Shown here: positions 13,715 through 52,707 of the stretch, one piece after another | Position numbering within the stretch: the first letter of the stretch is position 1 | Layout of the letters: each line of letters starts with the position of its first letter | Assembly (NCBI GenBank): GCA_963665115.1 | Contig: OY762007.1 | Span: forward strand, 6,784,001 to 6,848,000 | DNA from: an uncultured Rivularia sp. | GTDB taxonomy: Bacteria > Cyanobacteriota > Cyanobacteriia > Cyanobacteriales > Nostocaceae | Direction of reading: 5' to 3' | DNA length: 64,000 nt | Notes under the pieces: model-generated | Seen by the model: the letters and a program-made list of their open reading frames with translations, nothing else | What the model was told of the DNA's origin: nothing | The model's database searches: none | Translations under genes and position numbers: made by a program

Positions 13715-13728
13715 AGTACTAATGTTCT
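13715..13728 (+). promoter_or_regulatory. LexA box upstream of lexA
   Basis: AGTACTAATGTTCT fits the Anabaena-type consensus RGTAC-N3-DGTWCB, 33 bp before the ATG. Confidence 0.85.
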
Positions 13729-14555: not shown

Positions 14556-16043
14556 ATGTATTTGACGCAAAAAAAATATCATCAGGCACCAATCACTTTT
14601 CGTCTGAAAATTCCTTATCGTGCAGGGGAAAAGAAGGGTACTTATCAAGCAAAACAGCTATTGCCGGGATGTCCGAAAATTCCGCCATCTCTGCAATTGC
14701 GAGATTACCAAAAGCAAGCTGTAAATAATTGGTTTGCGAATAATGGTAGGGGTACTTTAAAAATGGCGACTGGTAGCGGTAAAACTATCACGGCACTGGC
14801 AATTACTTGGGAATTATATAGTCAAATAAATTTGCAAGTATTGTTAGTGGTGTGCCCTTACCGTCATCTTGTCACCCAATGGGCGCGGGAATGCGAAAAG
14901 TTTGGTTTAAAGCCGATTTTAGCTTTTGAAAATGTCCGCACTTGGCAAACGCAACTTTCGGAGCAGCTTTACAATGTGCGTTCTAGTTCTCAACAGTTTC
15001 TCACAATTGTTACTACTAATTCAACGTTGATAAGTGATGGTTTCCAATCTCAATTAAAATACTTTCCTGAAAAAACTTTGATTATTGGCGATGAAGCGCA
15101 TAATTTGGGTTCGCCAAAGTTAGAAGAAAGTTTACCGCATAGTGTTGGATTAAGGTTGGGGTTATCTGCCACACCGGAAAGATATTTTGATGAGGTAGGA
15201 ACGGTGGCGGTATTTAATTATTTTGGTGCGGTTTTGCAACCGGAATTTACTTTGAGAGATGCGATTACTCAAGGTGCTTTGGTACGCTATCTTTATTATC
15301 CGATATTGATAGAATTAACTGAATCTGAAAGTCTTGCTTATGCCAAATTGACGCGGAAGATTGGGCGGGTTTTGATGTATAAGCAGCGAGAAAGTGGCGA
15401 TTTGATTAATATTGAAGATAATGAAGATATCAAATCTTTATTAATTCAGCGTGCAAGGTTGGTAAGTGCCGCTGAAAATAAATTAAATGCTTTGCGGGAA
15501 TTGATGTTAAGTCGTCGCGAAACTACTCATACATTATTTTATTGCAGCGATGGCTCTCAAGAAGCGGAAGGGCGTGCGAATTTACGTCAATTGAAGGAAG
15601 TAACTCGCATTTTAGGAGTCGAGTTGGGTTATAGAGTTAGTACCTATACGGCAGAAACTTCTTTGGTAGAGAGAGAAGCTTTAAGAAGTCAATTTGAAAG
15701 TGGAGAATTACAAGGTTTAGTTGCAATTCGCTGTCTGGATGAAGGAGTTGATATTCCAGCGATTAAAACAGCCGTGATCTTAGCAAGTTCGAGCAATCCC
15801 CGTCAATTTATCCAGCGGCGGGGAAGAGTTTTACGTCCTCATCCAGGTAAGGAACGTGCAACTATATTCGATATGATTGTACTGCCTCCAGATTTAGATC
15901 GAAAGACTTTAGAAGTGGAGCGTAATTTGTTGAGAAAGGAATTGCGGCGCTTTGTTGAGTTTGCCGATTTAGCTGACAATGCTGGTGAAGCAAGGATGAA
16001 ATTGCTGGATTTACAAAAGCGGTATGGATTGATGGATGTTTAA
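14556..16043 (+). CDS. SF2 (DEAH, type III Res-like) helicase associated with DNA phosphorothioation; PbeA-like
   Basis: LRDYQ, MATGSGKT, GDEAH, GLSATP, LDEGVDIP, FIQRRGRVLR; context next to dnd genes; no nuclease domain recognised. Confidence 0.85.
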   Translation: MYLTQKKYHQAPITFRLKIPYRAGEKKGTYQAKQLLPGCPKIPPSLQLRDYQKQAVNNWFANNGRGTLKMATGSGKTITALAITWELYSQINLQVLLVVCPYRHLVTQWARECEKFGLKPILAFENVRTWQTQLSEQLYNVRSSSQQFLTIVTTNSTLISDGFQSQLKYFPEKTLIIGDEAHNLGSPKLEESLPHSVGLRLGLSATPERYFDEVGTVAVFNYFGAVLQPEFTLRDAITQGALVRYLYYPILIELTESESLAYAKLTRKIGRVLMYKQRESGDLINIEDNEDIKSLLIQRARLVSAAENKLNALRELMLSRRETTHTLFYCSDGSQEAEGRANLRQLKEVTRILGVELGYRVSTYTAETSLVEREALRSQFESGELQGLVAIRCLDEGVDIPAIKTAVILASSSNPRQFIQRRGRVLRPHPGKERATIFDMIVLPPDLDRKTLEVERNLLRKELRRFVEFADLADNAGEARMKLLDLQKRYGLMDV

Positions 16044-16387
16044 TTTGGGAATTGGGCATTGGGCAATGCGATTTTCTCAAAAAAATTTATTATTTTATTT
16101 ATTGTGAGAATAAAAATGCCCTTTATGTGGGATAATTAGATATAGAGATAAATACTTTTATAATGGAGAGAAAGTAATTTTTTTGAAGTGGCTAATATTT
16201 CCATTATGATAAAATACTCTATATAAAAATAATATCAGAAAAGCGTCTTTAAAATAAAAAATATTTTTTTGTGGGATATGTTAAAAAGCGATAAATAATT
16301 TGAGTTATAACGTCGCATTTAACGCACCACTTTAATAATAAGTTATATATAAGATTGTTATCTTTTAGTAATACACTAATCCTGGAT

Positions 16388-16449
16388 GGTGCGTTAGATG
16401 CATCAAAAATATCTTTTAGATTCATAAACAATCGTGCATCTTACACACC
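16388..16449. repeat. REP-like hairpin of the GGTGCGTTA...TAACGCACC family
   Basis: ggtgcgttagatgca ... tgcatcttacacacc; half copy taacgcacc at 16320-16328; relatives at 18944-19006 and 19152-19163. Confidence 0.65.
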
Positions 16450-16652
16450 TTACAAATTATATTTATTTTTGTATTAAAAATTGTTTCAGCAAAAAGCTTT
16501 AACAAAAGGATTTACAGTTTTAAATAATACATTTGTAAGAGAGTTGACTATTAATAATCAGCCTTGAAAGGATAATTAAAGCAAACATAGTTACAGTGAG
16601 TTTACGGATAACAGAGTATACCTACTCCAGGTAAAATATAGCTTAAATTGCT

Positions 16653-16841
16653 ATGTTAAAAACCGTGATGAAAAAACAGCATAATATAGATGAAGTACAA
16701 CAACCAATAAAGTGCGCTTCACCAGAAGTACGGCAAATTATCGAGCAAGTATGGCATTTAGAAAAAAGTAGACTTGATAAAAAAAGTTTTGGTCATATTA
16801 ACGAAGATATTTTAGCAATCGTTAAGGAAGCTGTAAAATGA
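16653..16841 (+). CDS. 62-aa protein translationally coupled to the ATPase (PbeB-like position)
   Basis: Stop overlaps the ATPase start (ATGA at 16838-16841); helical EVRQIIEQVWHLEK...EDILAIVKEAVK. Confidence 0.75.
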   Translation: MLKTVMKKQHNIDEVQQPIKCASPEVRQIIEQVWHLEKSRLDKKSFGHINEDILAIVKEAVK

Positions 16842-18901
16842 AGCTGACTTCTATCAAGCTTTGTAACTTTCGTTCTTTTTACGGTAAAACTTGTGAAATA
16901 ACTCTTGCTGGGACAAGCTCAAACAATACTACTATTATTTACGGTAATAATGGTGCGGGTAAAACGAGTTTGCTGAATGCATTTACATGGGTATTATACG
17001 AAAAGTTTAGTGCAGCTTTTGCTTCGATTGACCAACTTGTAAATAAAAGAGCGATCGCCGAAGCGAAAATTGGGCAAGGTGTGGAATGTTGGGTAGAGTT
17101 AGCGTGGGAACACGACAGCAAACGCTATCGAGTCAAACGTCAATGTCGAGTTTACAAACATGAAAATGATATTGACGTTGGTAAAACAGAAATATATATG
17201 CAGGTAGCGGGAGATGACGGTAGATGGTATCTTCCACCGCAACGACCGGAAGAGATTATCGGACAAATTTTACCTGCTAGTTTACATCAATACTTTTTTT
17301 TCGATGGCGAAAGAATTGAAGAAATAGTTCGTTCGGATAAGAAGGCGGAAATTGCGGAAGCTACTAAAATATTTTTGGGTGTAGAGGTAATAAATCGTTC
17401 AATTCGACATTTACAAGAAGCCAAGAAAAGTTTAGAAAATGAGTTGAGAATAATCGGTGATTCGGAAATTAAAAAGTTATTGAAACAGCAGGGTAAAATT
17501 GAGCTTGAAATTGAAATAATTAGCAAACGTCAGCAAGAAATTATTAAAGAATTAGAATATCAAAATACTTTTAAAAAAGAAACTAGTAAACGTTTGCGGG
17601 AATTGAATGCGGCAAAGGATTTACAGGAAAGGCGGCAGGAATTAGAAAAACAAAAAGCGTCGCATCAAGATAATTTACGACAAACTAGAGAAACTATCAA
17701 AAAAGCCATCTCCACACGCGGCTATACAGTATTGTTACCGGAAACAACAGTACAGTTTCGAGAAATTATCGATAATTTGAAGCAGAAGGGAAAGTTAACT
17801 ACAGGGATTTCGCGAGAGTTTATTCAAGAGCTATTAAAATCAAGTAGCTGTATTTGCGGTACGAGTTTGAATGAAGATACAACTCGCGTAAATGTCGAAA
17901 CCTGGTTAGAGAAAGCAGGCTCCTCGGAAGTCGAAGAAACAGCAATTAGAATCAGCGCTCAAGTTGATGAAATTGACAAACAAGTAGCATTATTCTGGGA
18001 AGAAATTGATAAGGAACAAGCTAGAATTAGTCAGTTAAGACAGGTTATTGCTGAAATTGAAGCAGAGTTAGACAATATTGAAGAAAGATTAAGAAAAGAT
18101 CCTAGTGAAGAGATTAGAAGTTTACAAAAGCGTTTAGATAAAATTGAAGAAAAAATTACAGAATTAACTTTAGAGCAAGGTGCCAACCAGCAAAAAGTAA
18201 TTAACCTAAAAACCGAATTAGAAAGTTTAAATAAACAAATATCCAAGCAGAAATTAAACGAAGAAAAGCAGATATTAGCACAGCGTCGCATCAGCGCCAC
18301 ACAAGACGCGATCGATAGATTAACTCAAGTCAAAGTTTTGCAGGAAGAGCAATTCCGCTTGCAATTAGAAAAACGAGTGCAGGAGATATTTAGCGAAATT
18401 TCCTTTACACCTTATATTCCCACAATCAGCGAAAAATACGAATTAACGTTAATAGAAAATACTTCTGGTTTAGCAATGCCAGTTGCAGCATCTACCGGAG
18501 AAAATCAAGTTCTCAGTTTATCGTTTATTAGCAGCATTATCGATCGAGTGCGGGATTGGAGTCAAAATAAAATGCTCATGGTAGCCGATAGCAGCACGTT
18601 TCCAATTGTTATGGATTCACCTTTTGGAAGCTTAGATGTAATTTACCGAAAGCACATAGCTCAAATCATTCCGAAATTAGCAAATCAATTAATCGTATTA
18701 GTTACTAAAACGCAATGGAGGGGTGAAGTAGAAGACGAAATGTCATACCGAGTTGGTAGAGAATATGTTTTGACTTATTATTCTTCCAAACCCGATTGCG
18801 AACAAGATTTTATTGAATTAAGCGGAGACAGATATATGCTGGTAAAGCAAAGCCCAAATAATTTTGAATATAGTGAAATTGTGGAAGTTGAGAGAGAGTA
18901 A
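16838..18901 (+). CDS. Rad50/SMC-like ABC ATPase with central CxC motif; DndD paralog, PbeC-like
   Basis: NFRSF, Walker A GNNGAGKTS, YFFFDGE, long coiled coils with CICG at the apex, signature ASTGENQ, Walker B VMDSPFGSLD. Confidence 0.9.
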   Translation: MKLTSIKLCNFRSFYGKTCEITLAGTSSNNTTIIYGNNGAGKTSLLNAFTWVLYEKFSAAFASIDQLVNKRAIAEAKIGQGVECWVELAWEHDSKRYRVKRQCRVYKHENDIDVGKTEIYMQVAGDDGRWYLPPQRPEEIIGQILPASLHQYFFFDGERIEEIVRSDKKAEIAEATKIFLGVEVINRSIRHLQEAKKSLENELRIIGDSEIKKLLKQQGKIELEIEIISKRQQEIIKELEYQNTFKKETSKRLRELNAAKDLQERRQELEKQKASHQDNLRQTRETIKKAISTRGYTVLLPETTVQFREIIDNLKQKGKLTTGISREFIQELLKSSSCICGTSLNEDTTRVNVETWLEKAGSSEVEETAIRISAQVDEIDKQVALFWEEIDKEQARISQLRQVIAEIEAELDNIEERLRKDPSEEIRSLQKRLDKIEEKITELTLEQGANQQKVINLKTELESLNKQISKQKLNEEKQILAQRRISATQDAIDRLTQVKVLQEEQFRLQLEKRVQEIFSEISFTPYIPTISEKYELTLIENTSGLAMPVAASTGENQVLSLSFISSIIDRVRDWSQNKMLMVADSSTFPIVMDSPFGSLDVIYRKHIAQIIPKLANQLIVLVTKTQWRGEVEDEMSYRVGREYVLTYYSSKPDCEQDFIELSGDRYMLVKQSPNNFEYSEIVEVERE

Positions 18902-18958
18902 TCAATAAACAATGAACAATTATCAATAAACATTATGTTGTAAGGTGAGTTACGGCAC

Positions 18959-19231
18959 GAGAAACTTTGATTTTAAGTTATAAGTTAGAAAATGTCGTAA
19001 CGCACCAATATTCGGATTAAAAAACCGCAGAGGCGCAGAGAGTGCTGAGGTAAGAATTAAAGAGAGTTGGTAATTTTAAACTAACAGAATATCTAATATT
19101 TAATTTAAAGAAGCAAAGAAAATTTGATTTTAGGTTATGACTTATGAAATACCGTAACGCACCAATATTCGGATTAAAAAACCGCAGAGGCGCAGAGAGC
19201 GCTGAGGAAGAGTGAAAGAGAGTTGGTAATT
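18959..19231 (+). repeat. Imperfect approx. 115-bp direct repeat (two copies) between the ATPase and its partner gene
   Basis: cgtaacgcaccaatattcggattaaaaa(a)ccgcagaggcgcagagag(t/c)gctgagg...aaagagagttggtaatt in about 18959-19075 and 19117-19231. Confidence 0.85.
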
Positions 19232-19257
19232 GATAATTGATAATTGATAATTGAAAA

Positions 19258-19728
19258 ATGGCTGAAACTGGAAGAATAAGGGTTGCAAAAGATAAGGCTG
19301 AGTTAGTACAAAGTTTAACATCTTGGAATGGTGCAACGGGACCTTTTCAAACTTTTGCTGACGTGGTTGTTTTTGCGGCTACTTTGGGTAAAAAGCACAA
19401 TCGCCGCGTACCTTTGGGAGAAATTTCTAAAAGGGAACCTTCACCAATTAAAGTCGAAACTTTTGCTTCAATGGGTTATGACTGGGTGATTAAATTGATC
19501 GGAATTACCGAAACGAAAGATATAAAAGTACTTTCGGTAACTGAGGAAGAATCTCAAACTGAACGTAATAATATTTTTGAAGAATATACGAATGGTGGTT
19601 TGGAAATATTGCAAACTGAATTGCGAGGTGCGGTAGATTATTCGGAAAGGCTGTTGTTGATGTTGAGTGCGGAAAGGTTTAAGGAAGATAAGCAGGGAGA
19701 ATTTGATTTGAGTCGGTTTTTGTCTTGA
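19258..19728 (+). CDS. DNA phosphorothioation-associated protein 4-like small protein (PbeD-like position)
   Basis: RIRVAKDKAELV, GPFQTFADVVVFAA, IFEEYTNGGLEIL; follows the ATPase. Confidence 0.8.
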   Translation: MAETGRIRVAKDKAELVQSLTSWNGATGPFQTFADVVVFAATLGKKHNRRVPLGEISKREPSPIKVETFASMGYDWVIKLIGITETKDIKVLSVTEEESQTERNNIFEEYTNGGLEILQTELRGAVDYSERLLLMLSAERFKEDKQGEFDLSRFLS

Positions 19729-19740
19729 TGATAATTAATA

Positions 19741-19797
19741 CGCCCTCACCCTCGAAGGGTGGGGCTACAATTACAAAGCCCACCTGCGTGGGCTAAA
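19741..19797 (+). repeat. Left arm of a 57-bp inverted repeat pair (partner 22022-22078)
   Basis: cgccctcaccctcgaagggtggggctacaattacaaagcccacctgcgtgggctaaa. Confidence 0.8.
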
Positions 19798-19804
19798 TCA
19801 AATT

Positions 19805-21817
19805 TTATTCGGTATCTTCAGCATCTATCTCATCTTCAACAGATACTTGTTTCGTCAACAACTCACTATAAATTTCGGGCAAACCAGCTACTAATACAGC
19901 AGAAAATCTGTCACGCACCATATCCTCTTTTTTTTGCTCGCCCATTTTTTCATAGTCTTTGCCATAAAATGTATTAGTGTCAAAACCTTTATACAATGCT
20001 TTGTAAGCATCCGTACAATTTGACCACTGGACTTTATTTACATCTGCTCTGAAAAAATTTAATAGCTTTCGTCTGGATAACATCGGATAACCATTTGCAG
20101 CGTCTATTTGGACTTTACGAGAACCAAAATACCATAAGCATAGTAAGTAAAATATTCTATCTTCTACTGTTTTCGCAACCTTAATTTTGTCATTACCAGG
20201 ATTTATCGCTACAAATGTCCACAAACGATATGGGTAATTTGCTAAATTAACATCTACCTTCAAAATACCTCGATCGTAAAGCCGATTTAGAAAATCTATA
20301 ACATTATTTATATTGCCTAAACTTTCATCTGTTCTTGTATTTTTAAATTCTATAAGTTTTCCTAAACGAACTATAGCTTTTTGAAATATAACTTTGAAAG
20401 CCCACTGGTTTTCTTTCAAAGCATTAATAGCTTTGCTATGGCTAATTATTTTTGTTTGGTGCCAATCACTATCTCTTGCATTTTCCTGCTCTTTAATCGT
20501 TCCTTTGTGTTTACTTGTCTGAGCTTGGAATTTGCCAAAAGTACCTTCAATTAAATCGTTATCGCGGGCATATTCAAGCAAGTTATTGTAAGGTTTGAAA
20601 TCCAGTAAAAGCTTAATTAACCAAGGACGAAAGTTAACTTCAAAGCCCTTTATTGCTGAACTCAGATAATTCTGTGGTAATCGAGAAAAAGGTGTTTCTG
20701 GCTCTTCATCTTCATCGCAGTAATCTTCTTGATAATAAGTGAAGAGAGAGCGTCCTTCATACTCAACTGGTTGTCCGTTTATGCCGAGTGCATCGTCAAT
20801 ACTTTTTATAAACCCTTCAATTTGCTTCTTTTCCATAGGATCGCGTGGTGGTTTCAAATCCAAAGTTGCAGAAACCAAAAGATCCAAATTTACAAGTGAA
20901 TTCAGATAGTAGGAACTATCAAATTTGACAGAATCATCTTGCCAACGTACTAAGGAAAGAGGAAGTCTATCGTCCGCATCTTCACCTGTTTTCTCTGTAA
21001 TCAGCGTTCTGACGCACTGTGCGTTAATACTTTGATCGTCAAGAATTAGCTCTCTAGCTTTATCAACTGTCTTAGCATTTTTATTCAAGTCAGTAAATAA
21101 TTCACGAGCAATTCCTCGAATGGAATAATCCGCTTCACTTTGAATATTTTGAAACCCTGCATCAGGATGAAGTAAAACAAATAAAATTGGAATCTTAGTT
21201 TGTTTTTCCGTGGTATGAAGAGTACCACCTCTAAATTTTGGATCTTCACGAAAAGTACGAAGCGCCCAAAGACGATGTTGTCCATCTACAGCTACTGGTA
21301 AAATCCGCTCCTTATCCCAACGAAGCCGCGCTTGTGTTCCAACAGAAACGAATTGAACACCACCAAAGTTAGCAATTTTAGCTTGGGGTTGGTTCCATTG
21401 TGCGTCATCAGTATCACTACCATCGTAAGGAATAGGGGGAGAATTAGTATCTGGAGAATTATCAAAGGTATCTTGAATTTTTTCGTCATCTCCCTTTGGC
21501 ATCAATACTATAGTAATAGCATTGAAAAATTTTAACTTTTTAGGATCGAGAAGATAACCTTTAACAATATCGTCTCCTACTCTCTTCTCATCAATTTCTC
21601 GTTGAAAAAGTTCTTTCAGCGACCATTTTGTATCGATAGAAGCGGGAATCTGCTCGGCAATCTTCAGTTCATCAATTGCTCGGTTAATTTCAATTAAAGA
21701 AAGAAAATAAGGAAGCGCTATACCTTCGGATAGAGTATAAGTTCCAGTTAAACCATAAAGAGGTTTATTAAAACTTGCTTTTTCTTCGTCATTCGAGAAT
21801 ATAGGCATTTTTATCAC
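19805..21817 (-). CDS. DGQHR / DndB-like domain protein, 670 aa with long C-terminal extension
   Basis: LFQREID, KFFNAITIVL, VAVDGQHRLWAL, ARELFTDLNKNAKTV; start GTG 21817 or ATG 21808. Confidence 0.88.
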   Translation of the reverse strand: MIKMPIFSNDEEKASFNKPLYGLTGTYTLSEGIALPYFLSLIEINRAIDELKIAEQIPASIDTKWSLKELFQREIDEKRVGDDIVKGYLLDPKKLKFFNAITIVLMPKGDDEKIQDTFDNSPDTNSPPIPYDGSDTDDAQWNQPQAKIANFGGVQFVSVGTQARLRWDKERILPVAVDGQHRLWALRTFREDPKFRGGTLHTTEKQTKIPILFVLLHPDAGFQNIQSEADYSIRGIARELFTDLNKNAKTVDKARELILDDQSINAQCVRTLITEKTGEDADDRLPLSLVRWQDDSVKFDSSYYLNSLVNLDLLVSATLDLKPPRDPMEKKQIEGFIKSIDDALGINGQPVEYEGRSLFTYYQEDYCDEDEEPETPFSRLPQNYLSSAIKGFEVNFRPWLIKLLLDFKPYNNLLEYARDNDLIEGTFGKFQAQTSKHKGTIKEQENARDSDWHQTKIISHSKAINALKENQWAFKVIFQKAIVRLGKLIEFKNTRTDESLGNINNVIDFLNRLYDRGILKVDVNLANYPYRLWTFVAINPGNDKIKVAKTVEDRIFYLLCLWYFGSRKVQIDAANGYPMLSRRKLLNFFRADVNKVQWSNCTDAYKALYKGFDTNTFYGKDYEKMGEQKKEDMVRDRFSAVLVAGLPEIYSELLTKQVSVEDEIDAEDTE

Positions 21818-22021
21818 CCCGATAATAATTTATGAAAAGTAATATTTCTCATAAAATATGAAAAACATTAGTTTGTATAATATGCGATAAGATTATGATT
21901 TTAAATCAGTGAAACCCACAATAACAAAAGGATTAAATACGAAATTTACCTTTATCTTTCAAAAAGCTGCGAACAATAATGAAGTACTTTTATTTTACGT
22001 ATGGTAAATCATTAGGCATTT

Positions 22022-22078
22022 TTTAGTCCACGCAGGTGGACTTCGTTTCTGTAGCCCCAGACTTCTAGTCTGAGGGTG
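22022..22078 (-). repeat. Right arm of the 57-bp inverted repeat pair
   Basis: Revcomp caccctcagactagaagtctggggctacagaaacgaagtccacctgcgtggactaaa aligns without gaps to 19741-19797. Confidence 0.8.
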
Positions 22079-22115
22079 ACGTATTTTAATTAATTATAAA
22101 AACGGGTAAAACCTA

Positions 22116-23390
22116 ATGAATTCATCAAATAAATTAACTCCTCCAAAAAGGCGATCGCACCCTACTATCCAATTAGATGTTAACTTTAACGATTTACACA
22201 CCTGCTTCGGCGCTTTCTTCCGTACCATCGATCGCCAGCAATCTTTAAATGGGATTAAATCTTTTTGGCATACCGATAAAGAAGTTTTAGTCACCTTATC
22301 TGTAAGAACTAGTTTAGATTTATTGTTACAATCATTAAATCTACCTCCCGAATCGGAAGTATTAATGAGCGGCATTAATATCCGAGAAATGGCAGAAATT
22401 ATCCGTAGTCATGGATTAATTCCGGTTCCTATTGATATTTCCATAGATACTGTTGCGCCTAATTTAGAAATATTAGAGCAGTTAACTTCTCCTCGAAGCA
22501 AAGTATTATTAATCGCGCATTTATTTGGTGTAATTGTTCCTTTACAGCCTTACGTTGATTTCTGTAAAAAACATCATATTCTACTTGTTGAAGACTGCGC
22601 TCAAGCTTTTGCAGGAAAACAATATTTTGGACATCCTCAAGCTGATGTGAGTCTATTTAGCTTTGGTGCGATCAAATCTTGTACTGCTTTGGGTGGAGCA
22701 GTAGCATTAATTAAAGATAAACAATTAGCTCAAAAAATGGCAGCTATCGAGCAAAAATATTTCCAAAAAAGCGAGTTTTGGTATTTAAAAAGAGTATTTA
22801 AGTTCTATTGGTTAAAACTTCTTTCGCTGCCGAGCTTGTACGATCAAATCCTTAATTTAATGCGGTTGTTAAATTTGGATGTCGAATCAACTATAAAAAA
22901 AGCAACCCTCGGTTTCCCTACAGGTGATATACTCACAAAAATTCGCTATCGTAATCCCAAACATCTACTGTGGTTTTTAAACTATAGATTGAGTCATTGC
23001 GATGATTTTCAAGAGCGTATTCAACGAGGCAAAGATTTTTTAAAAATGCTACCAGATAATCTTACTATCCCTGGTAACAAAGCTGAATATAATTCCTTTT
23101 GGGTAATGCCAATTTTGATAGATTCTCCTGATGCTATGGCAAAAATACTGCGTGCGGAGGGTTTTGATAGTGCCAGAGGAAACCGCAGTTTATTTGCTAT
23201 TGACGCAAAGCCAAATACGCCCAATCATCTTTTACCAATTCAAAGTCAATATTCAATGGCACATATTTTATGCGTACCATTTTCGCCTTTATTAACGGTA
23301 CAGGAATCTGAATATTTAGCGCAATTAATTACGGTAAATATCGATTGTGAATTTGAACAAACAGAAAATATAGTAATTCAAAATAATTAG
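22116..23390 (+). CDS. DegT/DnrJ/EryC1/StrS family PLP-dependent aminotransferase
   Basis: PVPIDI, IAHLFG, LVEDCAQAF, FSFGAIKS (PLP lysine), GGA. Confidence 0.88.
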   Translation: MNSSNKLTPPKRRSHPTIQLDVNFNDLHTCFGAFFRTIDRQQSLNGIKSFWHTDKEVLVTLSVRTSLDLLLQSLNLPPESEVLMSGINIREMAEIIRSHGLIPVPIDISIDTVAPNLEILEQLTSPRSKVLLIAHLFGVIVPLQPYVDFCKKHHILLVEDCAQAFAGKQYFGHPQADVSLFSFGAIKSCTALGGAVALIKDKQLAQKMAAIEQKYFQKSEFWYLKRVFKFYWLKLLSLPSLYDQILNLMRLLNLDVESTIKKATLGFPTGDILTKIRYRNPKHLLWFLNYRLSHCDDFQERIQRGKDFLKMLPDNLTIPGNKAEYNSFWVMPILIDSPDAMAKILRAEGFDSARGNRSLFAIDAKPNTPNHLLPIQSQYSMAHILCVPFSPLLTVQESEYLAQLITVNIDCEFEQTENIVIQNN

Positions 23391-23410
23391 GTATCCGACG
23401 GTTGAATAGC

Positions 23411-23633
23411 CTCGTTACTAGCCTCCAGGCTGGGAACGCATTCTCCGAGGCTCTGCCTCTCGTTAAATCCTTGCTTAGAGGCGGAGCCTCACTTCGGGGA
23501 TTCCTAGTCAAAGACTAGGAAACCAGGTAGAAATTCCGAGGCTAATAGCTAAAGTCTACTAAAGTAGACTGAAAAATATCTAGTCGTCTTTAGACGACTT
23601 TCGCTATTAGCTGGGGGTTTGCAACCCCCAGTG
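23411..23633. repeat. Two adjacent multi-hairpin dispersed repeats
   Basis: 23411-23526 (gaggctctgcctc...gaggcggagcctc dyad) and 23531-23633 (gctaatagctaaagtc...gactttcgctattagc dyad). Confidence 0.75.
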
Positions 23634-23668
23634 GATTTGAAAATAAATCATTTTATGGAGGATTATTT

Positions 23669-24208
23669 ATGGTTTGGGAAATCACTACTGAAGAGTTGTT
23701 GAAAAAGTATACTTCCGGCAAGCGAAATTTTGCAGGGGCTGAAGTCATTAGAGAAAAGGGATGTGGACGTAGCTACATTGACCTTGAAGGTGCTATTTTG
23801 CGAGATGTTAACTTTCGTGGAGCCGATTTGAGTTTTGCCGATCTTAGAGGAGCGGATCTGAGTAGAACCGATCTGTTTGGTGCTTCCTTGGTAGAAGCTC
23901 GGTTGGATGGTGCGATTATCAGGGATGCTAATTTGGAATGTGTTAATTTGTTTAGGTGTTATTTGATTGGTGCTGATTTGGTTGGAAGTCACTTGTATCA
24001 GGCTAGTGCCATCGGTGCTATTTTCCGTAAAGCTAAATTTTTGTATGGTGGTGAGCATAACGTTTTCATTCGTGCTGATTTCCGAGATGCTTCCATTGCC
24101 CACGATGCTATTTGTCGAGCCATGAATGTAATTTGGGATACTATAATGCCCGATGGCAGCGTCCAAAGTGATCCTTATTTTGGAGAGTGGAAATCGATTC
24201 GGAAGTAA
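23669..24208 (+). CDS. Pentapeptide repeat protein
   Basis: GGAGG RBS; ELLKKYTSGKRNF, ADLSF/ADLRG repeats, TIMPDGS tail. Confidence 0.9.
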   Translation: MVWEITTEELLKKYTSGKRNFAGAEVIREKGCGRSYIDLEGAILRDVNFRGADLSFADLRGADLSRTDLFGASLVEARLDGAIIRDANLECVNLFRCYLIGADLVGSHLYQASAIGAIFRKAKFLYGGEHNVFIRADFRDASIAHDAICRAMNVIWDTIMPDGSVQSDPYFGEWKSIRK

Positions 24209-24249
24209 AAGATTTACAAACAAACAGAAACATCTAAACATATCCCCCC

Positions 24250-25830
24250 TCACAAAACCCCCGGCAATCCCACCTGTTTCGGCTCTACAAACTTACCTTT
24301 AAAATCCACAGTTTGATCTTCAATAGTTCTAGCTTTCGCTAAATCGTTCCTTAATTCTGCACGCTCCATCTTGTCTTTAACCCCACCCAAAATATAAACG
24401 AGTAACCGCGTTGCTAATTCTTTCCCGGCAACTAATACCCGCTTGCGATTCGCATCGTATAAAACCCCATACCAAAGAGATTTAGGAAAGTCCATTCCAC
24501 TAAAACCGCCTTTACTATCAAATTTTCTTAACTTTTCAAAAATATCTTCTATAGAAAAACCTTTTTCAAATATTAAGATACCTAAAGCCTTAGCTAATGC
24601 CATTTGTCCGACTGGACGAAATAAAATATTACCTTCTCCCTCGTCTTTTTCAAAACTAAACCTGCGGAACATTGGCGTGTCTTCGTGTTCTAAAAGTTTA
24701 TAGCTTGGTAAAGTTGCTAAATTGTCAAATAGCTCGTAAAAATCTTCTATCGCTGATTCTAATTCTTCATCCTCCGGGCGCATGGGAATTAAACCTTTGT
24801 CTAAGGGCTTCCAATGAGGATACTTGTGTTCTAAATAACGTTCTGACATCTCTTTTAAAGCTTGCAAAGTTGTCAAAACTGTAGACTTTGCTGCAACTGT
24901 GGCACTATTCCAATTTACGCGAGATTTCCGATCTTTACGCTGTTCTAAAAGTGGATGGCTAACGGCTATCTTTCTGGCAACAATAGAAAAACCATCGTCT
25001 TCATTTAACTGTGCTAACTGTCCTTTACTCAAGGGTACAGCCATTAAGTTAACGTGTACAAAAATTGACCTTACCCTGCGTCTTGCTTCCTCGCGGGTTT
25101 CTCCTTGGGCAACTGCACAAATAAATTCTATACCGATTTTTTCTTGGGGTAATTGTTGTAAATATTCGGCTTCAACTCCGTATTTTTCTGTTAAATTATC
25201 AATCGTAATAAAATTGTTAGCAGCGGCTTTATCTTTCTTGTAGCGCGGTAACTTACCAGTTTTGAGTATCTCCATCAAACCCTGTACCGCCATTAATCTA
25301 TGTTGTCCATCTAATGCATAAATAGTTACATTTTCTTCTCTAATATCAAGCAAGCCAAATTGACCGTTTTCATCTAAACTAGTAAATTCCGTAGTAGATT
25401 TTTTGGCTCGTCCTTTATTGTCCCACTCAGATGCTTTGGAATCATTTACCCAAGGCTGACTAATTACAGCTAATACGGGAGGAAATTTATGATTTTTACG
25501 TGCTGCTAAATACTGAACTAAAGGTGCTTGTCGCGACCAATCTAAGGGGCGTTGCTGAATATCATCTATACTTTCTGCGTCAATTTCGATATTATCAGTA
25601 TCGGGATTGTACTTACTTCGCAATAATGGTAACAAAGATGCAAAGCGAACCTGACTAGCAAACCATTCTAAAGTTACCGAACCAACATAAGCTTGAGTCC
25701 CGCCCATTTCTGTTTTTTGGACTAATAGCTGTTGATTTTCACCAAGATATTTGGTTAATAAAGTAGAAAATTTCTTTTTATCTGGACTGCTAATAACTGA
25801 GAAAGGTTCAGATGCACTCTTTTTCATCAC
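24250..25830 (-). CDS. DGQHR domain protein (DndB-like), 526 aa, divergent from dndC
   Basis: QQRPLDWSR, HKFPPVL, YALDGQHRLMAV, RSIFVHVN, QLNEDD. Confidence 0.9.
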   Translation of the reverse strand: MMKKSASEPFSVISSPDKKKFSTLLTKYLGENQQLLVQKTEMGGTQAYVGSVTLEWFASQVRFASLLPLLRSKYNPDTDNIEIDAESIDDIQQRPLDWSRQAPLVQYLAARKNHKFPPVLAVISQPWVNDSKASEWDNKGRAKKSTTEFTSLDENGQFGLLDIREENVTIYALDGQHRLMAVQGLMEILKTGKLPRYKKDKAAANNFITIDNLTEKYGVEAEYLQQLPQEKIGIEFICAVAQGETREEARRRVRSIFVHVNLMAVPLSKGQLAQLNEDDGFSIVARKIAVSHPLLEQRKDRKSRVNWNSATVAAKSTVLTTLQALKEMSERYLEHKYPHWKPLDKGLIPMRPEDEELESAIEDFYELFDNLATLPSYKLLEHEDTPMFRRFSFEKDEGEGNILFRPVGQMALAKALGILIFEKGFSIEDIFEKLRKFDSKGGFSGMDFPKSLWYGVLYDANRKRVLVAGKELATRLLVYILGGVKDKMERAELRNDLAKARTIEDQTVDFKGKFVEPKQVGLPGVL

Positions 25831-26038
25831 AAAACTTTAAAAAATTAAATACTGACTTCCATTTACTATATATAAAAACGTTATCAAAACAAAATATTAA
25901 ATAAAAAGTTTTTAAAAACCGCTACTGGTACAAAAATATGTAATACTAGTTTTTGCTCTTATTTTATATAAATACAAATATCTGGCAATTTAATAATCGC
26001 GATTAATCCAAAATCCAAAATCCAAAATCCAAAATCGA

Positions 26039-27632
26039 ATGACTCTTGCCCAACAATCAGAAAAAAGCCAGCCAGCACCCGTTACGGTAATTGATAAAAT
26101 TCCTCTTATTACCAAAGAAATCCAGGAATTATATTTACTAGACGAAATACCTTGGATTATTGGCGTGTCTTGGGGTAAAGACTCCAGCACAATTTTGCAA
26201 CTTATTTGGAATGCGATCGCAACTCTACCACCAAAGAAACGCGGTAAAACAATTCACGTAATTACTACGGATACGCTGGTAGAAAATCCTATCGTTTCGG
26301 CATGGGTTCGCAATTCGATGAAGTTGCTGGGATCTGCTGCGAAAGAAAAAGGAATGCCCATCGAGCCTCATTTGCTGTTGCCAGTAATTCAAGATACATT
26401 TTGGGTGAATTTAATCGGCAGGGGTTATCCGGCTCCCCGCAATCAGTTTCGCTGGTGTACGCCGCGTTTGAAAATTAATCCAGCTAACCAGTTTATTCGC
26501 GAAATGGTTAGAGCTAACGGTGAAACAATTTTGGTTTTGGGTACTCGCAAAGCCGAAAGTTCGAGACGAGCCGCCACAATGCAAAAGCATCAAGCGGGTA
26601 GAATCCGCGAGCGTTTGAGTCCGAATGCCAGTTTACCAAACTCTTTGATTTATACTCCTATCGAAGATTGGAGCAACAACGATGTGTGGATTTACCTCAA
26701 TCAATGTGAAAATCCTTGGGGTGGTAATAATAAAGATTTATTTTCGATGTATCGCGGTGCGACGGCAGATAACGAATGTCCTTTAGTTGTCGATACTTCT
26801 ACCCCCAGTTGCGGCGATTCGCGCTTTGGTTGTTGGGTTTGTACGATGGTGACAAAAGATAAATCAATGGAAGCGATGATTCAGAATGATGAAGAAAAAG
26901 AATGGATGCAGCCGCTTTTAGATATTCGTAACGAGCTAGATATTCAAGACGACCATGATAAGCGCGATTTTCGCAGAATTTGGGGTAAAGTACAGCTTTT
27001 CGAGCGTAATAAAGATGGTAAAACATCAGTGCAGCCAGTACCAGGGTCCCTATACAAAATATTGGCGCGAACATTGGTTAACGAGGGTATTGTCAGCGCA
27101 AACCCAAGCTCGTCAAACTGCGCCGGAAGATATGCGCGATATTACCTTAATTACCCCAGATGAACTGAGTGAAATCAGGCGCATTTGGTTAGAAGAAAAA
27201 CACGAATTTGACGATAGTTTACCCCGGATTTATCAAGAAGTGACAGGAGAATCTTTTGTAGACTCCCGCCCCGGTGCGGGTTACAGCTTATTAGGCAGCG
27301 ATGAGTGGGCAGTATTAGAAGAAATCTGCGACAACGACGCGATGCATTTAGAATTGATGGCGAAACTGTTAGATACAGAACGGCAATATCGTAAAAAATC
27401 GCGTCGCGTCGGAATCTACGATGCCTTAGAAAAATGTTTTGAAACAAGCTCCCGAACTCAAGAAGACGCAATTAAAAACGCCCACTTTAAACGTGACTTA
27501 AAAGATGCTGCTGGCAAAGGTGATATTGACAAAGTAAAACAGTTGACTTTAGGCGACGTTACGGCAGAAAAAGCAACAGAAAAACCAGAAAAATCTAAAA
27601 CTTGGGCAGATAAAAAATTTAAAAAACAATGA
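26039..27632 (+). CDS. dndC: DNA phosphorothioation sulfurtransferase DndC (apparent +1 frameshift at 27044-27046)
   Basis: PAPS-reductase-like SWGKDS, DTLVENP, GRGYPAP, RWCT, LGTRKAES, CPLVVD, SCGDSRFGCWVC; removing one G gives VPGPYTKYWREHWL. Confidence 0.93.
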
Positions 27633-27836
27633 ACAATTATCAATTATCAATTATCAATTATCAATGAATAATGAAAAATATATGCTGCAATGGTTTGGTG
27701 AGGCAATCCGATAAATTATTAAGGAGTTTAATTATATGCTTTTAATAAATGATAACTATTGACTTATAACACTATAAAGTTAAAGATAAAATCGAATTGA
27801 CTGATAATTGATAATTGATAATTGATAATTGATTAC

Positions 27837-29825
27837 ATGATATTTCTCGAACTTGTTTTAGAAAACTTTGGTCCTTATTATGGTCGTCAAGTCATAAATT
27901 TGCAGCCAAATAATGATGATAATCCCCACCCGATTATTCTTGTCGGTGGAATGAATGGTGGAGGAAAAACAACTTTTATGGATGCGATTCGTCTGGCACT
28001 TTACGGACATCGCGCCCAATGTTCGACTCGCGGTAATTTGAGTTATCATGACTTTCTTAATCAATGCGTAAATACCCATAAATCACCTACAGAGAAAACT
28101 CGCATTGAGCTAGCTTTTGAACATATTGAAAACGATAAACCCGTTAGATATCGTGTAGTTAGAACTTGGGAAAATAATCCTAAAGATGGTAAAGATCATT
28201 TAGGAATTTTAGATATTCGTGAAAACGATGAATGGCTGGATGAGGGATTAGTAAATATTTGGGATGAATATATTGAAAATTTATTACCTTTAGGAATTTC
28301 CAACTTATTTTTATTTGATGGCGAACAGGTAAAAGAACTTGCCGAACAAGAAGAACCACCAACTATTGTAATCGAAGCAATTCGCGCTCTTTTAGGTTTA
28401 GAATTAGCAGAACGTTTGACAGCTGATTTGGAAATATTAGTAAATCGCAAACGTAAAGAACTTGTAGATACAAAAGAACTGGCAAACTTAGAAGAAATAG
28501 AAAAGCGACTCAAAGATTTACAGGAAGAATACGAAGAAACCAAAAATGTAGAAGCGCAGGAATTAGAATTTCTACAGCAAGCAGAAAAAAATCAACAGGA
28601 AGCCTTTGATAAATTTGTCAGCGAAGGCGGAAAAATAGCTTCAGAAAGCAGTCAGTTAGAACAGCAAAAAATAGCAAAAGCTAAAGAAGCAGAAAACACT
28701 CGTCAGGAAATGACTGAATTAGCGGCGGGCGTTTTACCGTTGAAATTAATCGAACCATTACTAAATCAAGCTCAAGAAAGAGGTGAAGTCGAATCCTTAG
28801 TTAAGCAACAGCAAATAGCGCGAGATATATTGCTCGAACGAGATAAACGCTTGCTTAACTTGATTAATAAAATAGATATAGCAGCAGATCAATTTTCTCA
28901 AATAAAAACCTTTTTAGACGAAGACATACAAACTATAAATACATCCTTAAAAGAATCACCTTGGTTATTAGCAGATGCAGAAAGTTTGAGTAAATTAGGC
29001 AATATTCTCTACTACTTGCAAACTACCAGCAATACCGCCAAACAGCAATTAAAACAATTAAAAAATAAAGACGAAGAAATAATTACTTTAGAAAGACAAA
29101 TACAAGCAGCAGCAGCACCAGAAGATTATCAAAAGTTAGTAGAATCAGTTAAAGAAGCCCAAAATAAAGTTACCGATATCAAAAGTAATTGCGAAACAGT
29201 AACTCGTCGCTTAATAGAACTACAAACAGAAATTGATAAATTAAAAAAAGATTTAACAGAATATAGCGTTCAAACCATCGAACATAAAAGCAAAGAAAAC
29301 ATCATTAATGCATCCACAAGAGTACAAGAAACCCTCAAACTATTTCGCGAACGACTTACCTTAAGAAAACTTAACAAATTAGAAAACGAAGTCACAGAAT
29401 GCTTCCGCTACCTGCTCCACAAATCCGATTTAGTACATCGCATCATCATCGACACCAACACCTTCAGCCTTTCCCTATACGACTCAAACTCAAAACAAGT
29501 TGACAAACATCGTTTATCAGCAGGAGAAAAACAACTATTGGCGATCGCCTTCCTTTGGGCATTAGCAAGAGTATCCGGGCATCAATTACCCGTTGCCATC
29601 GACACCCCACTAGGAAGATTAGACTCATCTCACCGCAGCAACTTAGTAGAAAGATACTTCCCCTCAGCCTCCCATCAAGTAATACTACTTTCCACCGACA
29701 CAGAAATCGCCGAAAAAGAAGTAAAAACCCTCCGCAAGAATGAGGCGATCGCCCGCGAATACGTCCTCAAATACTCTCAGAAAACTCGTCAAACTACAGT
29801 AGAATCTGGGTATTTTTGGAAATAG
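27837..29825 (+). CDS. dndD: DNA sulfur modification ATPase DndD
   Basis: ENFGPY, GGMNGGGKTT, LFLFDGE, coiled coil, LSAGEKQLLA, IDTPLGRLDSSHR, SHQVILLSTDTEI; between dndC and dndE. Confidence 0.95.
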   Translation: MIFLELVLENFGPYYGRQVINLQPNNDDNPHPIILVGGMNGGGKTTFMDAIRLALYGHRAQCSTRGNLSYHDFLNQCVNTHKSPTEKTRIELAFEHIENDKPVRYRVVRTWENNPKDGKDHLGILDIRENDEWLDEGLVNIWDEYIENLLPLGISNLFLFDGEQVKELAEQEEPPTIVIEAIRALLGLELAERLTADLEILVNRKRKELVDTKELANLEEIEKRLKDLQEEYEETKNVEAQELEFLQQAEKNQQEAFDKFVSEGGKIASESSQLEQQKIAKAKEAENTRQEMTELAAGVLPLKLIEPLLNQAQERGEVESLVKQQQIARDILLERDKRLLNLINKIDIAADQFSQIKTFLDEDIQTINTSLKESPWLLADAESLSKLGNILYYLQTTSNTAKQQLKQLKNKDEEIITLERQIQAAAAPEDYQKLVESVKEAQNKVTDIKSNCETVTRRLIELQTEIDKLKKDLTEYSVQTIEHKSKENIINASTRVQETLKLFRERLTLRKLNKLENEVTECFRYLLHKSDLVHRIIIDTNTFSLSLYDSNSKQVDKHRLSAGEKQLLAIAFLWALARVSGHQLPVAIDTPLGRLDSSHRSNLVERYFPSASHQVILLSTDTEIAEKEVKTLRKNEAIAREYVLKYSQKTRQTTVESGYFWK

Positions 29826-30011
29826 GGGATTGGGCATTGGAGAATAGTTAGGAGTAGCAAGTCGCAAGTAGTGAGTAGCAAGTAGCAAGTAGCAAGTAGC
29901 AAGTAGTGAGTAGCGGGTTATGAACTAATTTCTCTTTGTCTCCCCATCCCCCATGCCCAATGCCCAATCCCCAATGCCCAATCCCCCATGCCCAATCCCC
30001 AACTTTAAATC

Positions 30012-30398
30012 ATGGAATCACCAATCGAACGCATCCGCTTATCCCAGACAGGCAAAGATCAACTGTTAAAACTCAGGCGCTTTACCAAAATCGATCAGTG
30101 GAATATCCTGTGTCGCTGGGGGTTTTGTCGTTCCCTCGCAGAAAAAAGTATTCCTTCTCCCGTACCGATACCCCAAGATAGTAACGTCGAATTAAACTGG
30201 CGAATATTTGGCGGTGAAATGTCCGATATGCTGCTTTTAGCCCTCAAACAACGCTGTTATAACGATGGTTTGGGAACCGATAAAGAAACCCTCGTAACCC
30301 AATTTCGGCTACATCTACATCGCGGCATCGGCTATTTAGCAGGAGATCCAAATATTAAGAAAATTGAAGATTTGATTGAATTAGCCACTGAGAATTAG
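30012..30398 (+). CDS. dndE: DNA sulfur modification protein DndE
   Basis: RIRLSQTGKDQLLKLRRFTKIDQWNILCRWGFCRSL...FRLHLHRGIGYL. Confidence 0.93.
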   Translation: MESPIERIRLSQTGKDQLLKLRRFTKIDQWNILCRWGFCRSLAEKSIPSPVPIPQDSNVELNWRIFGGEMSDMLLLALKQRCYNDGLGTDKETLVTQFRLHLHRGIGYLAGDPNIKKIEDLIELATEN

Positions 30399-30413
30399 GT
30401 AGGAGATGGGGAA

Positions 30414-30646
30414 ATTATTAAAGTAGTGAGTAGTGAGTAGTGAGTAGTAAGTAGTAAGTAGCGAGTAAAAATAGACGGGCAGAAGTACCGACATTTATGA
30501 CAATAATAAAAAAGTGATTTACTCTCTACTCCCTACTTCCTACTTCCTACTTCCTACTCCCTACTTCCTACTCCCTACTTCCTACTCCCTACTCCCTACT
30601 CATAACTCCTAACTATTTCCAATCCCCAATGCCCAATCCCCTACTC
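30414..30646 (+). repeat. Composite dispersed element: heptamer arms plus conserved 60-bp core (copy 1)
   Basis: Core GTAAAAATAGACGGGCAGAAGTACCGACATTTATGACAATAATAAAAAAGTGATTTACTC at 30465-30524. Confidence 0.9.
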
Positions 30647-30680
30647 ACCCTTCACTCTTCTATGAGATAATAATTGCCAA

Positions 30681-32165
30681 TTGCCAATTGGATTTGTAGA
30701 GATGCCCGAAGTTTTAGCAATTGAACGCCACAGAGCAGCAATTTACCGCACAGACTTATCTCGTCCGACGAAATTGGCATTGGAATTTGAAATTATTAAT
30801 AAGAAGACTACGTTTTTTGATTATGGATGCGGACATGGCGGTGATGTCAAAAGATTGGCAGAGATCAATGTAAAAAGTGCGGGTTGGGACCCTTATTACA
30901 ATCCCGATGCCCGTTTGAAGTCTGCCGATGTAGTCAATCTCGGTTATATTCTTAACGTTATTGAAGATACCGAAGAACGGCTTGAGAGCCTTCAAAATGC
31001 GTGGAAACTCGCGAAGAAAGTATTAATAGTAGCCGCTCAAGTATTAGTAAGTACCATTAGTAGCAAAAATCAATTAGCTTATGGCGATGGTGTATTAACT
31101 CGTCGCAATACTTTTCAGAAATACTACGAACAGGGAGAACTTAAAAAATATATTGATAGCACTTTAGAAGTTGATGCCGTACCTGTAGCGTTAGGCATAT
31201 ACTTTGTGTTTCGCGACGAACAAGAAAAAGAAAATTTTCGCGTCGAGTGCTATCGTTCCCGAGTAATTGCGCCGAGAATTATTCTTGCGACTAAAAAATA
31301 TGAAGACTGCAAACAGGAATTAGCTCCATTAATTGAATTCTATACAAAACGCGGCAGATTACCAGTTGAAGGAGAATTAGAACCAGAAGCTTTATCAAAA
31401 ATACTGGTTGAATTTACCAGCATTCGCCGCGCCTTCAAAGTAATATTGCAAGCAACAGACGAAGCCGAATGGGATGCGATCGCCTACCGTCGTTCATTAG
31501 ACATCCAAGTTTATCTTGCCTTGGTGCATTTTGAAGAAGAACGTCCCAGATTCTCAGAGCTACCCAAGGAAATCCAATACGACATCAAAGCCTTATTCGG
31601 TTCATATCGGGATGCTTGCGAAGTAGCTGACGAAAAGTTATTTAGTTTAGGCGAACCTAAAATAATTCAAAAAGCCTGCTACAAAGGTAAAGTTGGTAAG
31701 CTTACACCAAGCGCTCTTTACGTCCACATGAAAGCTTTGTGGGAACTAGAACCATTGCTACGAATCTACGAAGGCTGCGCCAGTCGTGTATTTGGACGGC
31801 CAGAAGAAACAACACTGATCAAACTTCACATCAAAGAACCAAAAATATCTTACCTGTATTACCCCGATTTCGATACCGATGCTCATCCAGCCTTAAAAGC
31901 AAGCATAGTAATCGACTTACAAACATTCAAAATCACTCGCGGCGACTACTCCACCAGAGAAAATCCGCCTATACTGCACCGAAAAGAAACATTTGTAACA
32001 CCCAAATATCCACTCTACAAACAATTTGCCCAACTCACCCAACTTGAAGAAGAAGCAGGATTATATGAAAATCCCCGCGAAATCGGAACCCTTAAAGGCT
32101 GGCAAAAATGTTTAGAAGAACATGATGTAGAAATTAAAGAACATCAAGTTAGAAAAAGGGAATAG
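30681..32165 (+). CDS. DNA phosphorothioation-associated putative SAM-dependent methyltransferase
   Basis: ERHRAAI, FFDYGCGHG (motif I), GWDPYY, VVNLGYILNVIE, TFQKYY, YPDFDTDAHPAL, NPPILHRKETFV; follows dndE; start TTG 30681 or ATG 30702. Confidence 0.88.
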   Translation: MPIGFVEMPEVLAIERHRAAIYRTDLSRPTKLALEFEIINKKTTFFDYGCGHGGDVKRLAEINVKSAGWDPYYNPDARLKSADVVNLGYILNVIEDTEERLESLQNAWKLAKKVLIVAAQVLVSTISSKNQLAYGDGVLTRRNTFQKYYEQGELKKYIDSTLEVDAVPVALGIYFVFRDEQEKENFRVECYRSRVIAPRIILATKKYEDCKQELAPLIEFYTKRGRLPVEGELEPEALSKILVEFTSIRRAFKVILQATDEAEWDAIAYRRSLDIQVYLALVHFEEERPRFSELPKEIQYDIKALFGSYRDACEVADEKLFSLGEPKIIQKACYKGKVGKLTPSALYVHMKALWELEPLLRIYEGCASRVFGRPEETTLIKLHIKEPKISYLYYPDFDTDAHPALKASIVIDLQTFKITRGDYSTRENPPILHRKETFVTPKYPLYKQFAQLTQLEEEAGLYENPREIGTLKGWQKCLEEHDVEIKEHQVRKRE

Positions 32166-52693: not shown

Positions 52694-52707
52694 GGTACAA
52701 TAGTACT
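52694..52707 (+). promoter_or_regulatory. LexA box upstream of ssb
   Basis: GGTACAATAGTACT fits RGTAC-N3-DGTWCB, about 200 bp before the ATG. Confidence 0.75.

Follow-up and report, generated by a model that had tools for sequence, protein, structure and literature searches.

DndC receives sulfur from a housekeeping desulfurase, and together DndCDE install a phosphorothioate (PT) mark in DNA at a motif defined by a loop of DndC. Here, we describe the dnd-pbe locus at positions 14556..32165 of a 64-kb stretch of Rivularia sp. contig OY762007.1 (the window; all positions are relative to it). The host genome is a single 8.69-Mb contig in which every system gene is present as a single copy. The locus belongs with the haloarchaeal PbeABCD systems, in which, according to the published account, dnd deletion strains grow normally and viral replication is blocked with no cutting of viral DNA (PMC6459918). 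Cyanobacterial pbeAC-dndCD loci are already listed in the supplementary tables of that work, with 158 cyanobacterial mentions in the pbeAC table (Xiong 2019, PMC6459918). The families TIGR04095 and TIGR04062 were defined in 2011 as PT dependent by profiling (Basu, Selengut, and Haft, PMC3226654), a Microcoleus paper assigns the helicase to the type III restriction enzymes (PMC8546630), and in the literature cyanobacterial dnd genes figure as solo modifiers with an antioxidant role that stand close to the origin of PT (PMC8569181, PMC12707154). We found that the helicase of this locus has no nuclease domain, that the module around it is retained across the cyanobacterial order, and that the 5' half of dndC is exchanged among close relatives.

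The window helicase aligns to the PADLOC PbeA profile at 241 to 681 of 682 only (E value of 3e-166), that is, past the PLD/HKD domain. We surveyed 151 genomes of the host's order, taken to be the GTDB order Cyanobacteriales; because related genomes are not independent, the counts carry no P value. TIGR04095 gave 128 matches above its cutoff in 126 of the 151 genomes, and 127 of these lie in open frames of 451 to 551 aa. All 40 loci that we fetched encode a helicase without the HKD motif and with intact DEAH and QRRGR motifs. In a quick IQ-TREE analysis of 70 helicase cores, the 57 short helicases form one clade, with an unstarred Shimodaira-Hasegawa approximate likelihood ratio test (SH-aLRT) value of 90. 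This clade sits beside two full-length forms of 713 and 717 aa that carry an HEKLG motif. The Pfam PLD domain was found in four of five long proteins and in neither of two short ones. Outside the order, a helicase match was present in 3 of 123 genomes and was long in each; 77 of these 123 genomes belong to one distant family, so sampling of the outer limit is thin. A search for a separate nuclease partner found none; 92 of the 126 genomes with a helicase lack any PLD-domain match. The 52 PLD-domain matches in the order fall in 43 of the 151 genomes, 48 of them in frames of at least 627 aa and 4 in short fragments.

We also considered a split PbeA whose PLD domain is encoded elsewhere in the host genome. 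This candidate was rejected; the match lies 5.1 Mb away and is a PLD-SNF2 protein. It sits in an Hma-like island (L203:6987-16752; G000:C1, about 1.673 to 1.683 Mb) with a DUF499 ATPase and a DUF1156 methyltransferase, and at 624 aa, versus about 1050 in relatives, it looks internally shortened. Several genomes (L057, L059, L060, L061, L064, and L065) have a second, full-length PLD-bearing pbeA operon beside dndC, with the short core helicase elsewhere.

The helicase gene is retained together with the rest of the system. Among the 151 genomes, the helicase is present in 126, the CxC ATPase in 128, the PbeD-like protein in 129, DndC in 123, DndD in 128, and the methyltransferase in 134. All six genes occur in 115 genomes, none in 13, and the methyltransferase alone in 6, which leaves 19 without either module; a few absences in this tally were deduced from totals rather than listed. 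The first-pass annotation, made from the DNA letters alone, had proposed in advance that co-occurrence of the accessory genes with dnd genes elsewhere be checked, and this co-occurrence was found. It had also called the locus expanded. Instead, the system appears to be near-universal in the order and mostly vertically inherited. It is often scattered, with genes megabases apart. We selected 34 system-positive genomes of no more than 10 contigs; 4 of them keep one cluster and 18 have the genes in five or six separate places. The clustered loci run from the helicase through the small gene, CxC, and pbeD to DGQHR-526, which is encoded on the opposite strand, and then to dndC, dndD, and dndE. In relatives, variable cargo lies among these core genes: DndB, HNH, sulfur-binding domain (SBD)-HNH, Uma2-like, PD-(D/E)XK, AIPR, other DGQHR genes, and unrelated genes. 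The window carries DGQHR-670, an aminotransferase gene, and a pentapeptide gene as cargo. In 16 close pairs, the ratio of nonsynonymous to synonymous differences (pN/pS) is 0.07 to 0.15 across the module genes, which indicates purifying selection on the short helicases and the other module genes. Because the ratio is this low in all of them, the module is probably functional.

The exception to this stability is dndC. A loop in the product of its 5' half has been linked to motif choice (PMC12193691). We surveyed this loop in 51 mostly clustered genomes, and we built FastTree trees on 44 shared genomes from 10 families with rpoC1 as the marker. The number of family changes was 9 for rpoC1, 10 for the helicase, 10 for CxC, 11 for DndD, 11 for DGQHR-526, 12 for PbeD, and 10 for DndE (38 genomes). 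It was 21 for the N-terminal half of DndC and 15 for the C-terminal half. In 12 of the 16 close pairs, which we picked from 42, the synonymous divergence of the dndC 5' half is 0.57 to 0.69, versus a mean near 0.2 elsewhere, and DNA identity along dndC climbs from mostly 60 to 78% to more than 85%. This divergence and the rise in identity along the gene indicate replacement of the 5' half by old alleles rather than point change. The loop triplet occurs in 16 kinds among the 51 genomes and is unlike in 29 of the 42 close pairs; its first residue is Arg in 50 of the 51. The window triplet, RNQ, falls outside the three published patterns. In 11 of the 12 pairs with a swap, PbeD hardly differs. 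Because the part of DndC that is linked to motif choice is swapped among close relatives, the comparison argues for a self/non-self conflict as the driver.

Two further observations touch on motif and exchange. The most underrepresented tetramers in the host genome (G000) are GGCC (0.26), GATC (0.43), and GGTC/GACC (0.51); GGCC is the motif tied to Arg-x-Lys/Arg loops, and methylation-based systems could also explain the depletion. Heptamer tandem repeats flank dndC at 26005-26036 and 27625-27679, have hundreds of copies in the genome, and might help dndC to be exchanged.

In the window strain, dndC itself is broken. Two overlapping open reading frames (ORFs), 26039-27163 and 26955-27632, each match one half of TIGR03183, and the frame change is one extra G at 27044. 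We aligned contigs from four sister runs of one study to 25900-27800. Runs X1, X3, and X4 lack the extra base and have an intact frame, and X3 is otherwise identical to the window across 1647 bases. Run X2 equals the window exactly. An independent contig, that of X2, thus carries the same base. We therefore rejected an assembly error and read the frameshift as an allele that arose recently at the level of the strain, although X2 could be the very sample from which the assembly was made. No other of the 123 dndC-positive genomes has dndC as two overlapping halves; the other partial matches look like contig-edge fragments. The product retains the PP-loop and cysteine motifs and loses the C-terminal part, which is reported to bind DndD (PMC12193691). 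The strain is thus likely to be unable to install the mark and to be PT negative, although its Pbe ORFs are intact. The sister strains, one base apart in dndC, would make a ready-made PT-plus/PT-minus pair.

The features of the locus, with the evidence for each, are as follows.

14556..16043, + strand: PbeA-like superfamily 2 (SF2) helicase, 495 aa, without the N-terminal PLD/HKD domain; TIGR04095, 677 bits (cutoff 600), motor motifs intact
16653..16841, + strand: PbeB-like small protein, 62 aa, whose stop overlaps the ATPase start; conservation, no library match
16838..18901, + strand: PbeC/CxC-clade ABC ATPase, 687 aa, CIC zinc-hook motif at 338; PADLOC PbeC, 1137 bits
19258..19728, + strand: PbeD-position protein, 156 aa, dnd_assoc_4; TIGR04062, 187 bits
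19805..21817, - strand: rare accessory DGQHR/DndB-superfamily protein, 670 aa, in a variable slot; hhalign versus DndB, 71%
22116..23390, + strand: DegT/DnrJ-type aminotransferase, probably an unrelated insert; PF01041, absent in 40 related loci
23669..24208, + strand: pentapeptide-repeat protein, probably an unrelated insert; PF00805, 109 tblastn matches within its own genome
24250..25830, - strand: conserved DGQHR protein, 526 aa, divergent from dndC, not DndB; TIGR03187, 196 bits
26039..27632, + strand: dndC, split by a +1 frameshift at 27044 (374-aa and 225-aa ORFs), loop triplet RNQ; TIGR03183 halves
27822..29825, + strand: dndD, ABC ATPase; TIGR03185, 702 bits
30012..30398, + strand: dndE; TIGR03184 and PF08870
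30681..32165, + strand: PT-associated class I methyltransferase; TIGR04096, 662 bits

Genes were identified from an ORF listing and three profile libraries (including NCBIfam, PADLOC, and Pfam), and the closest named homologues are from Rivularia and Calothrix. Promoter and terminator scans gave chance-level results only. Most of the gene calls of the first-pass annotation hold up. The helicase, 62-aa, Rad50-like ATPase, and 156-aa set has ORFs where it placed them, and those with a profile match score above curated cutoffs; the methyltransferase after dndE is also there. Matches to the PADLOC PbeA and PbeC profiles bear out a Pbe-type arm, and we agree that no mechanism has been worked out for the combination. 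The helicase is a PbeA-type protein, as proposed, but its missing nuclease domain had been overlooked. The homologues of DndC, DndD, and DndE stand in that order (NCBIfam and PADLOC matches), but the first of these genes was taken as whole. The two opposite-strand DGQHR genes are real; however, two + strand genes between them were passed over, and their status is unlike, with DGQHR-526 in 91 of the 151 genomes and DGQHR-670 in 4. The combination is not new as such, since the Xiong 2019 supplement lists dndCD, pbeAC, and the methyltransferase for Rivularia and Calothrix; it is known in print as a catalogue.

We consider it an even chance that the locus encodes a non-cutting PT defense, in which DndCDE marks the DNA, a nuclease-free Pbe unit stalls unmarked DNA, and DndC provides the specificity for both. 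In this scenario, sulfur would reach DndC from a housekeeping desulfurase, and the DndC loop would choose the motif at which DndCDE writes PT. Among close relatives, as the comparisons above show, the 5' half of dndC changes hands, whereas the helicase, the small protein, the CxC ATPase, PbeD, and DndDE for the most part stay as they are. Because the Pbe genes stay unchanged while the dndC 5' half swaps, the Pbe unit would have no matching motif reader of its own, and we suggest that it borrows DndC(DE), which would hand unmarked sites to it. Type I restriction-modification and BREX systems offer an analogy, as they use the modifying subunit as the reader. By extension from haloarchaeal PbeABCD, the CxC ATPase and the helicase may clamp or translocate on DNA at an unmarked motif and block replication. 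Because dndC loss is tolerated, the Pbe unit would be idle rather than toxic without Dnd, and the system is likely off in this strain. The frameshift allele occurs with intact Pbe ORFs in both X2 and the window, and 8 genomes have PbeD and no dndC match. We hold only tentatively, and think somewhat unlikely, the further idea that DndC is writer and reader in an ancient, dispersed, nuclease-free immunity in which a 5'-half swap reprograms mark and block together, much as the specificity subunit does in type I restriction systems, and the methyltransferase adds a second chemical step at or near the mark.

Several observations weigh against a non-cutting defense with DndC as the shared reader. 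The clade of short helicases has unstarred support, and the close pairs are non-independent. Nuclease genes often lie within the cluster in relatives, with SBD-HNH in 20 of 51 genomes and Uma2-like genes in 14 of 40 loci, and cutting may be outsourced to them. As would be expected of an independent reader, PbeD and the DndC loop change together in some heterocyst-forming lineages (G017 versus G146). Matched exchange of reader and writer was considered and rejected; it holds in few lineages only. Different loop triplets may also give one same motif. Finally, near-universal presence, dispersal, and vertical descent fit housekeeping genes better than defense islands.

This last point is the core of one alternative, to which we give a small chance: that the system is domesticated. 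PT would then serve in redox protection or in the control of genes, and the helicase, free of a nuclease, would scan or repair PT-DNA together with the Rad50-like ATPase. Such a role has been proposed for cyanobacterial dnd (PMC8569181, PMC12707154). It agrees with the 115 genomes that carry the genes mostly in single copy and scattered, and with the nearest solved relatives of the helicase, which are the XPB/Rad25 repair helicases. The argF-lexA pair that precedes the locus in the window is directly upstream of the helicase in 7 of the 40 loci. However, a repeated swap of the dndC specificity half is hard to explain without a self/non-self conflict, and 19 of the 151 genomes do without either module. 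Control of the helicase by LexA was rejected. We scanned the window with what we take to be the Anabaena LexA-box pattern; the sole exact match near the locus (13715-13728, 34 bases upstream of lexA) precedes lexA, where autoregulation is likely, and none precedes the helicase. The lexA linkage is limited to two families. A second exact match, which is palindromic, lies at 52694-52707.

We think it about equally improbable that the Pbe motor serves as a platform for interchangeable nucleases or suicide effectors, recruited from among the products of the variable slots, with DGQHR-670 as the effector here. The slots do hold HNH, Uma2, PD-(D/E)XK, AIPR, and DGQHR genes, and Rakesh 2024 argues that cleavage belongs to these systems (PMC10853773). 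The SBD-HNH genes lie inside the dnd clusters of PT-encoding hosts (e.g., L015:13342-14283) and have conserved sulfur-pocket residues; none of the eight genomes with the RNQ loop has one. However, no single nuclease tracks the module, and SBD-HNH divergence does not follow the DndC loop. The host genome has no SBD-HNH homologue and no nuclease within the cluster, and in dispersed genomes the helicase has no constant neighbor. The weakest alternative, that the Pbe unit itself reads sulfur or a short G-linked core through PbeD or the methyltransferase and that dndC swaps are an escape from PT-cutting nucleases of competitors or phages, is suggested by the nearly invariant Arg of the loop (a possible shared core) and by the many PT-reading SBD-HNH genes in relatives, yet it is very improbable, as a motif-blind reader would not tell apart phage DNA marked by another host and would be expected to attack the unmarked chromosome of a strain with the broken dndC allele.

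The 62-aa protein was found in 51 of 51 surveyed genomes and is not fast-evolving (pN/pS of 0.15); it has no match in any profile library searched, and its counterpart in one full-length pbeA operon (L073) shares 59% identity with it. C338 and C340 of the CxC ATPase are invariant in 60 sequences. Homologues of the 156-aa protein are the last gene of full-length pbeA operons, with 46 to 47% identity to PbeD-position genes; the comparison with the DndE profile gave 1.9% only. A predicted complex with the helicase on the CxC head and the small protein scored 0.43, versus 0.22 for the best control, with a predicted local distance difference test (pLDDT) value of 78 and 94% contact agreement, which weakly suggests that the helicase docks there. 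In the benchmark, only 18 of 157 solved complexes fall in this score range, plus both passing mismatches of 215, and a pass in it is wrong more often than not, unless the complex was likely to begin with.

The two DGQHR proteins belong to the DndB superfamily and are not DndB; no DndB (TIGR03233) was found above the cutoff in the host genome, and two positive controls did match. DGQHR-526 has a pN/pS of 0.07, and no solved relative of it was found. In its four genomes, DGQHR-670 lies each time between pbeD and dndC on the opposite strand. Both proteins probably act as regulators that depend on ATP or as accessory effectors. The first-pass annotation had seen neither dndA nor dndFGH. Genome-wide, no DndA scored above the cutoff, and desulfurase homologues of up to 426 bits occur elsewhere in the genome. 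The dnd_assoc_1/2/3 profiles, which we take to be DndFGH, gave no match in whole-genome searches that had no positive control. The published tables also list DndFGH as absent in Rivularia and Calothrix (Xiong 2019, PMC6459918).

The methyltransferase is a looser partner of the system, with homologues in 14 genomes without dndC and on plasmids. It has a class I Rossmann domain (residues 6 to 174), two helical units, and a C-terminal alpha/beta domain that most relatives carry twice (structure models with pLDDT of 86.5 and 89.6). In fold, it most resembles methyltransferases of small molecules and of RNA (Z up to 12.0, root mean square deviation of 2.9, 146 aligned). The helical units have a weak likeness to HNH repeats and to the TetR helix-turn-helix (TetR-like matches with Z up to 7.2), and fold searches with the last domain gave nothing clear. 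A DPPY-type motif is a criterion for DNA methyltransferases, and the sequence has none. In Synechocystis, the published account assigns enzymes to the five methylated motifs, and the homologue on pSYSM is not one of them (PMC6105098). A Chlorophyte-type Dam identity was considered and is not supported by the text of PMC4738411. Homologues of about 1000 aa with a near-complete internal duplication occur at G113:C8, G130:C4, G121:C1, and G144:C65. The C-terminal domain alone matches a 485-kb uncultured phage (LR745208.1:186167-186649; 33%, E value of 6e-17), where counter-defense or a reader role is possible. Atlas searches gave scores below 0.9 throughout, and a PHROGs search gave a single weak ParB match.

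In the open literature, we found no paper that states order-wide nuclease loss, dispersed co-retention, or dndC half-swapping; the Rakesh 2024 supplement or the earlier CxC paper may list helicase-only forms. The antiviral mode of PbeABCD is disputed, as no cleavage is seen, yet an HKD nuclease is usually present. Order-wide loss of the nuclease with the rest under apparent purifying selection is a natural test of this in tractable filamentous cyanobacteria, and the 16 natural loop variants are a direct route to mapping loop to motif. The system may also be relevant to the poor transfer of DNA into these cyanobacteria.

Compared with DndCDEA-PbeABCD of Haloterrigena jeotgali A29, as described in PMC6459918, the four-gene order and sizes are alike (helicase, about 62 to 66 aa, ATPase, and about 152 to 156 aa). 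Both stand beside dndCDE, apparently without DndFGH in the window's host, and Dnd loss appears to be tolerated here as in A29. However, the A29 PbeA has the PLD domain that is lost across the cyanobacterial order. The window has no dndA, a conserved DGQHR protein and the methyltransferase are added, and in the order the genes are often dispersed.

With the CxC ABC-ATPase-DndE systems, as set out in PMC10853773, the locus shares a CxC ATPase, a putative cognate DndE-like protein, a small protein, and an SF2 helicase in tandem with DndD-DndE, with variable nucleases nearby in relatives. In that account (Rakesh 2024, PMC10853773), the vast majority carry an HKD DNase, the small protein is fast-evolving, and specificity is placed in DndE. 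Here, in contrast, HKD is absent, the small protein is conserved, and DndE is conserved whereas DndC varies. The window proteins score above the cutoffs of TIGR04095, TIGR04062, and TIGR04096. The TIGR04095-type family was named a "restriction enzyme" despite having no nuclease domain, and the text of PMC3226654 gives no mechanism.

Finally, the locus shares Nostocales enrichment, an apparent lack of dndFGH, and a partly vertical DndD with the cyanobacterial "solo" dnd genes (Jian 2021, PMC8569181; PMC12707154). Those papers, as far as their published conclusions go, hold that restriction partners are absent. Here, however, nearly all carriers have kept a Pbe-type partner as well, and the specificity halves of dndC are swapped. 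The co-retained Pbe unit and the cassette-like swaps of DndC specificity point to conflict and challenge the view of a solo antioxidant modifier.

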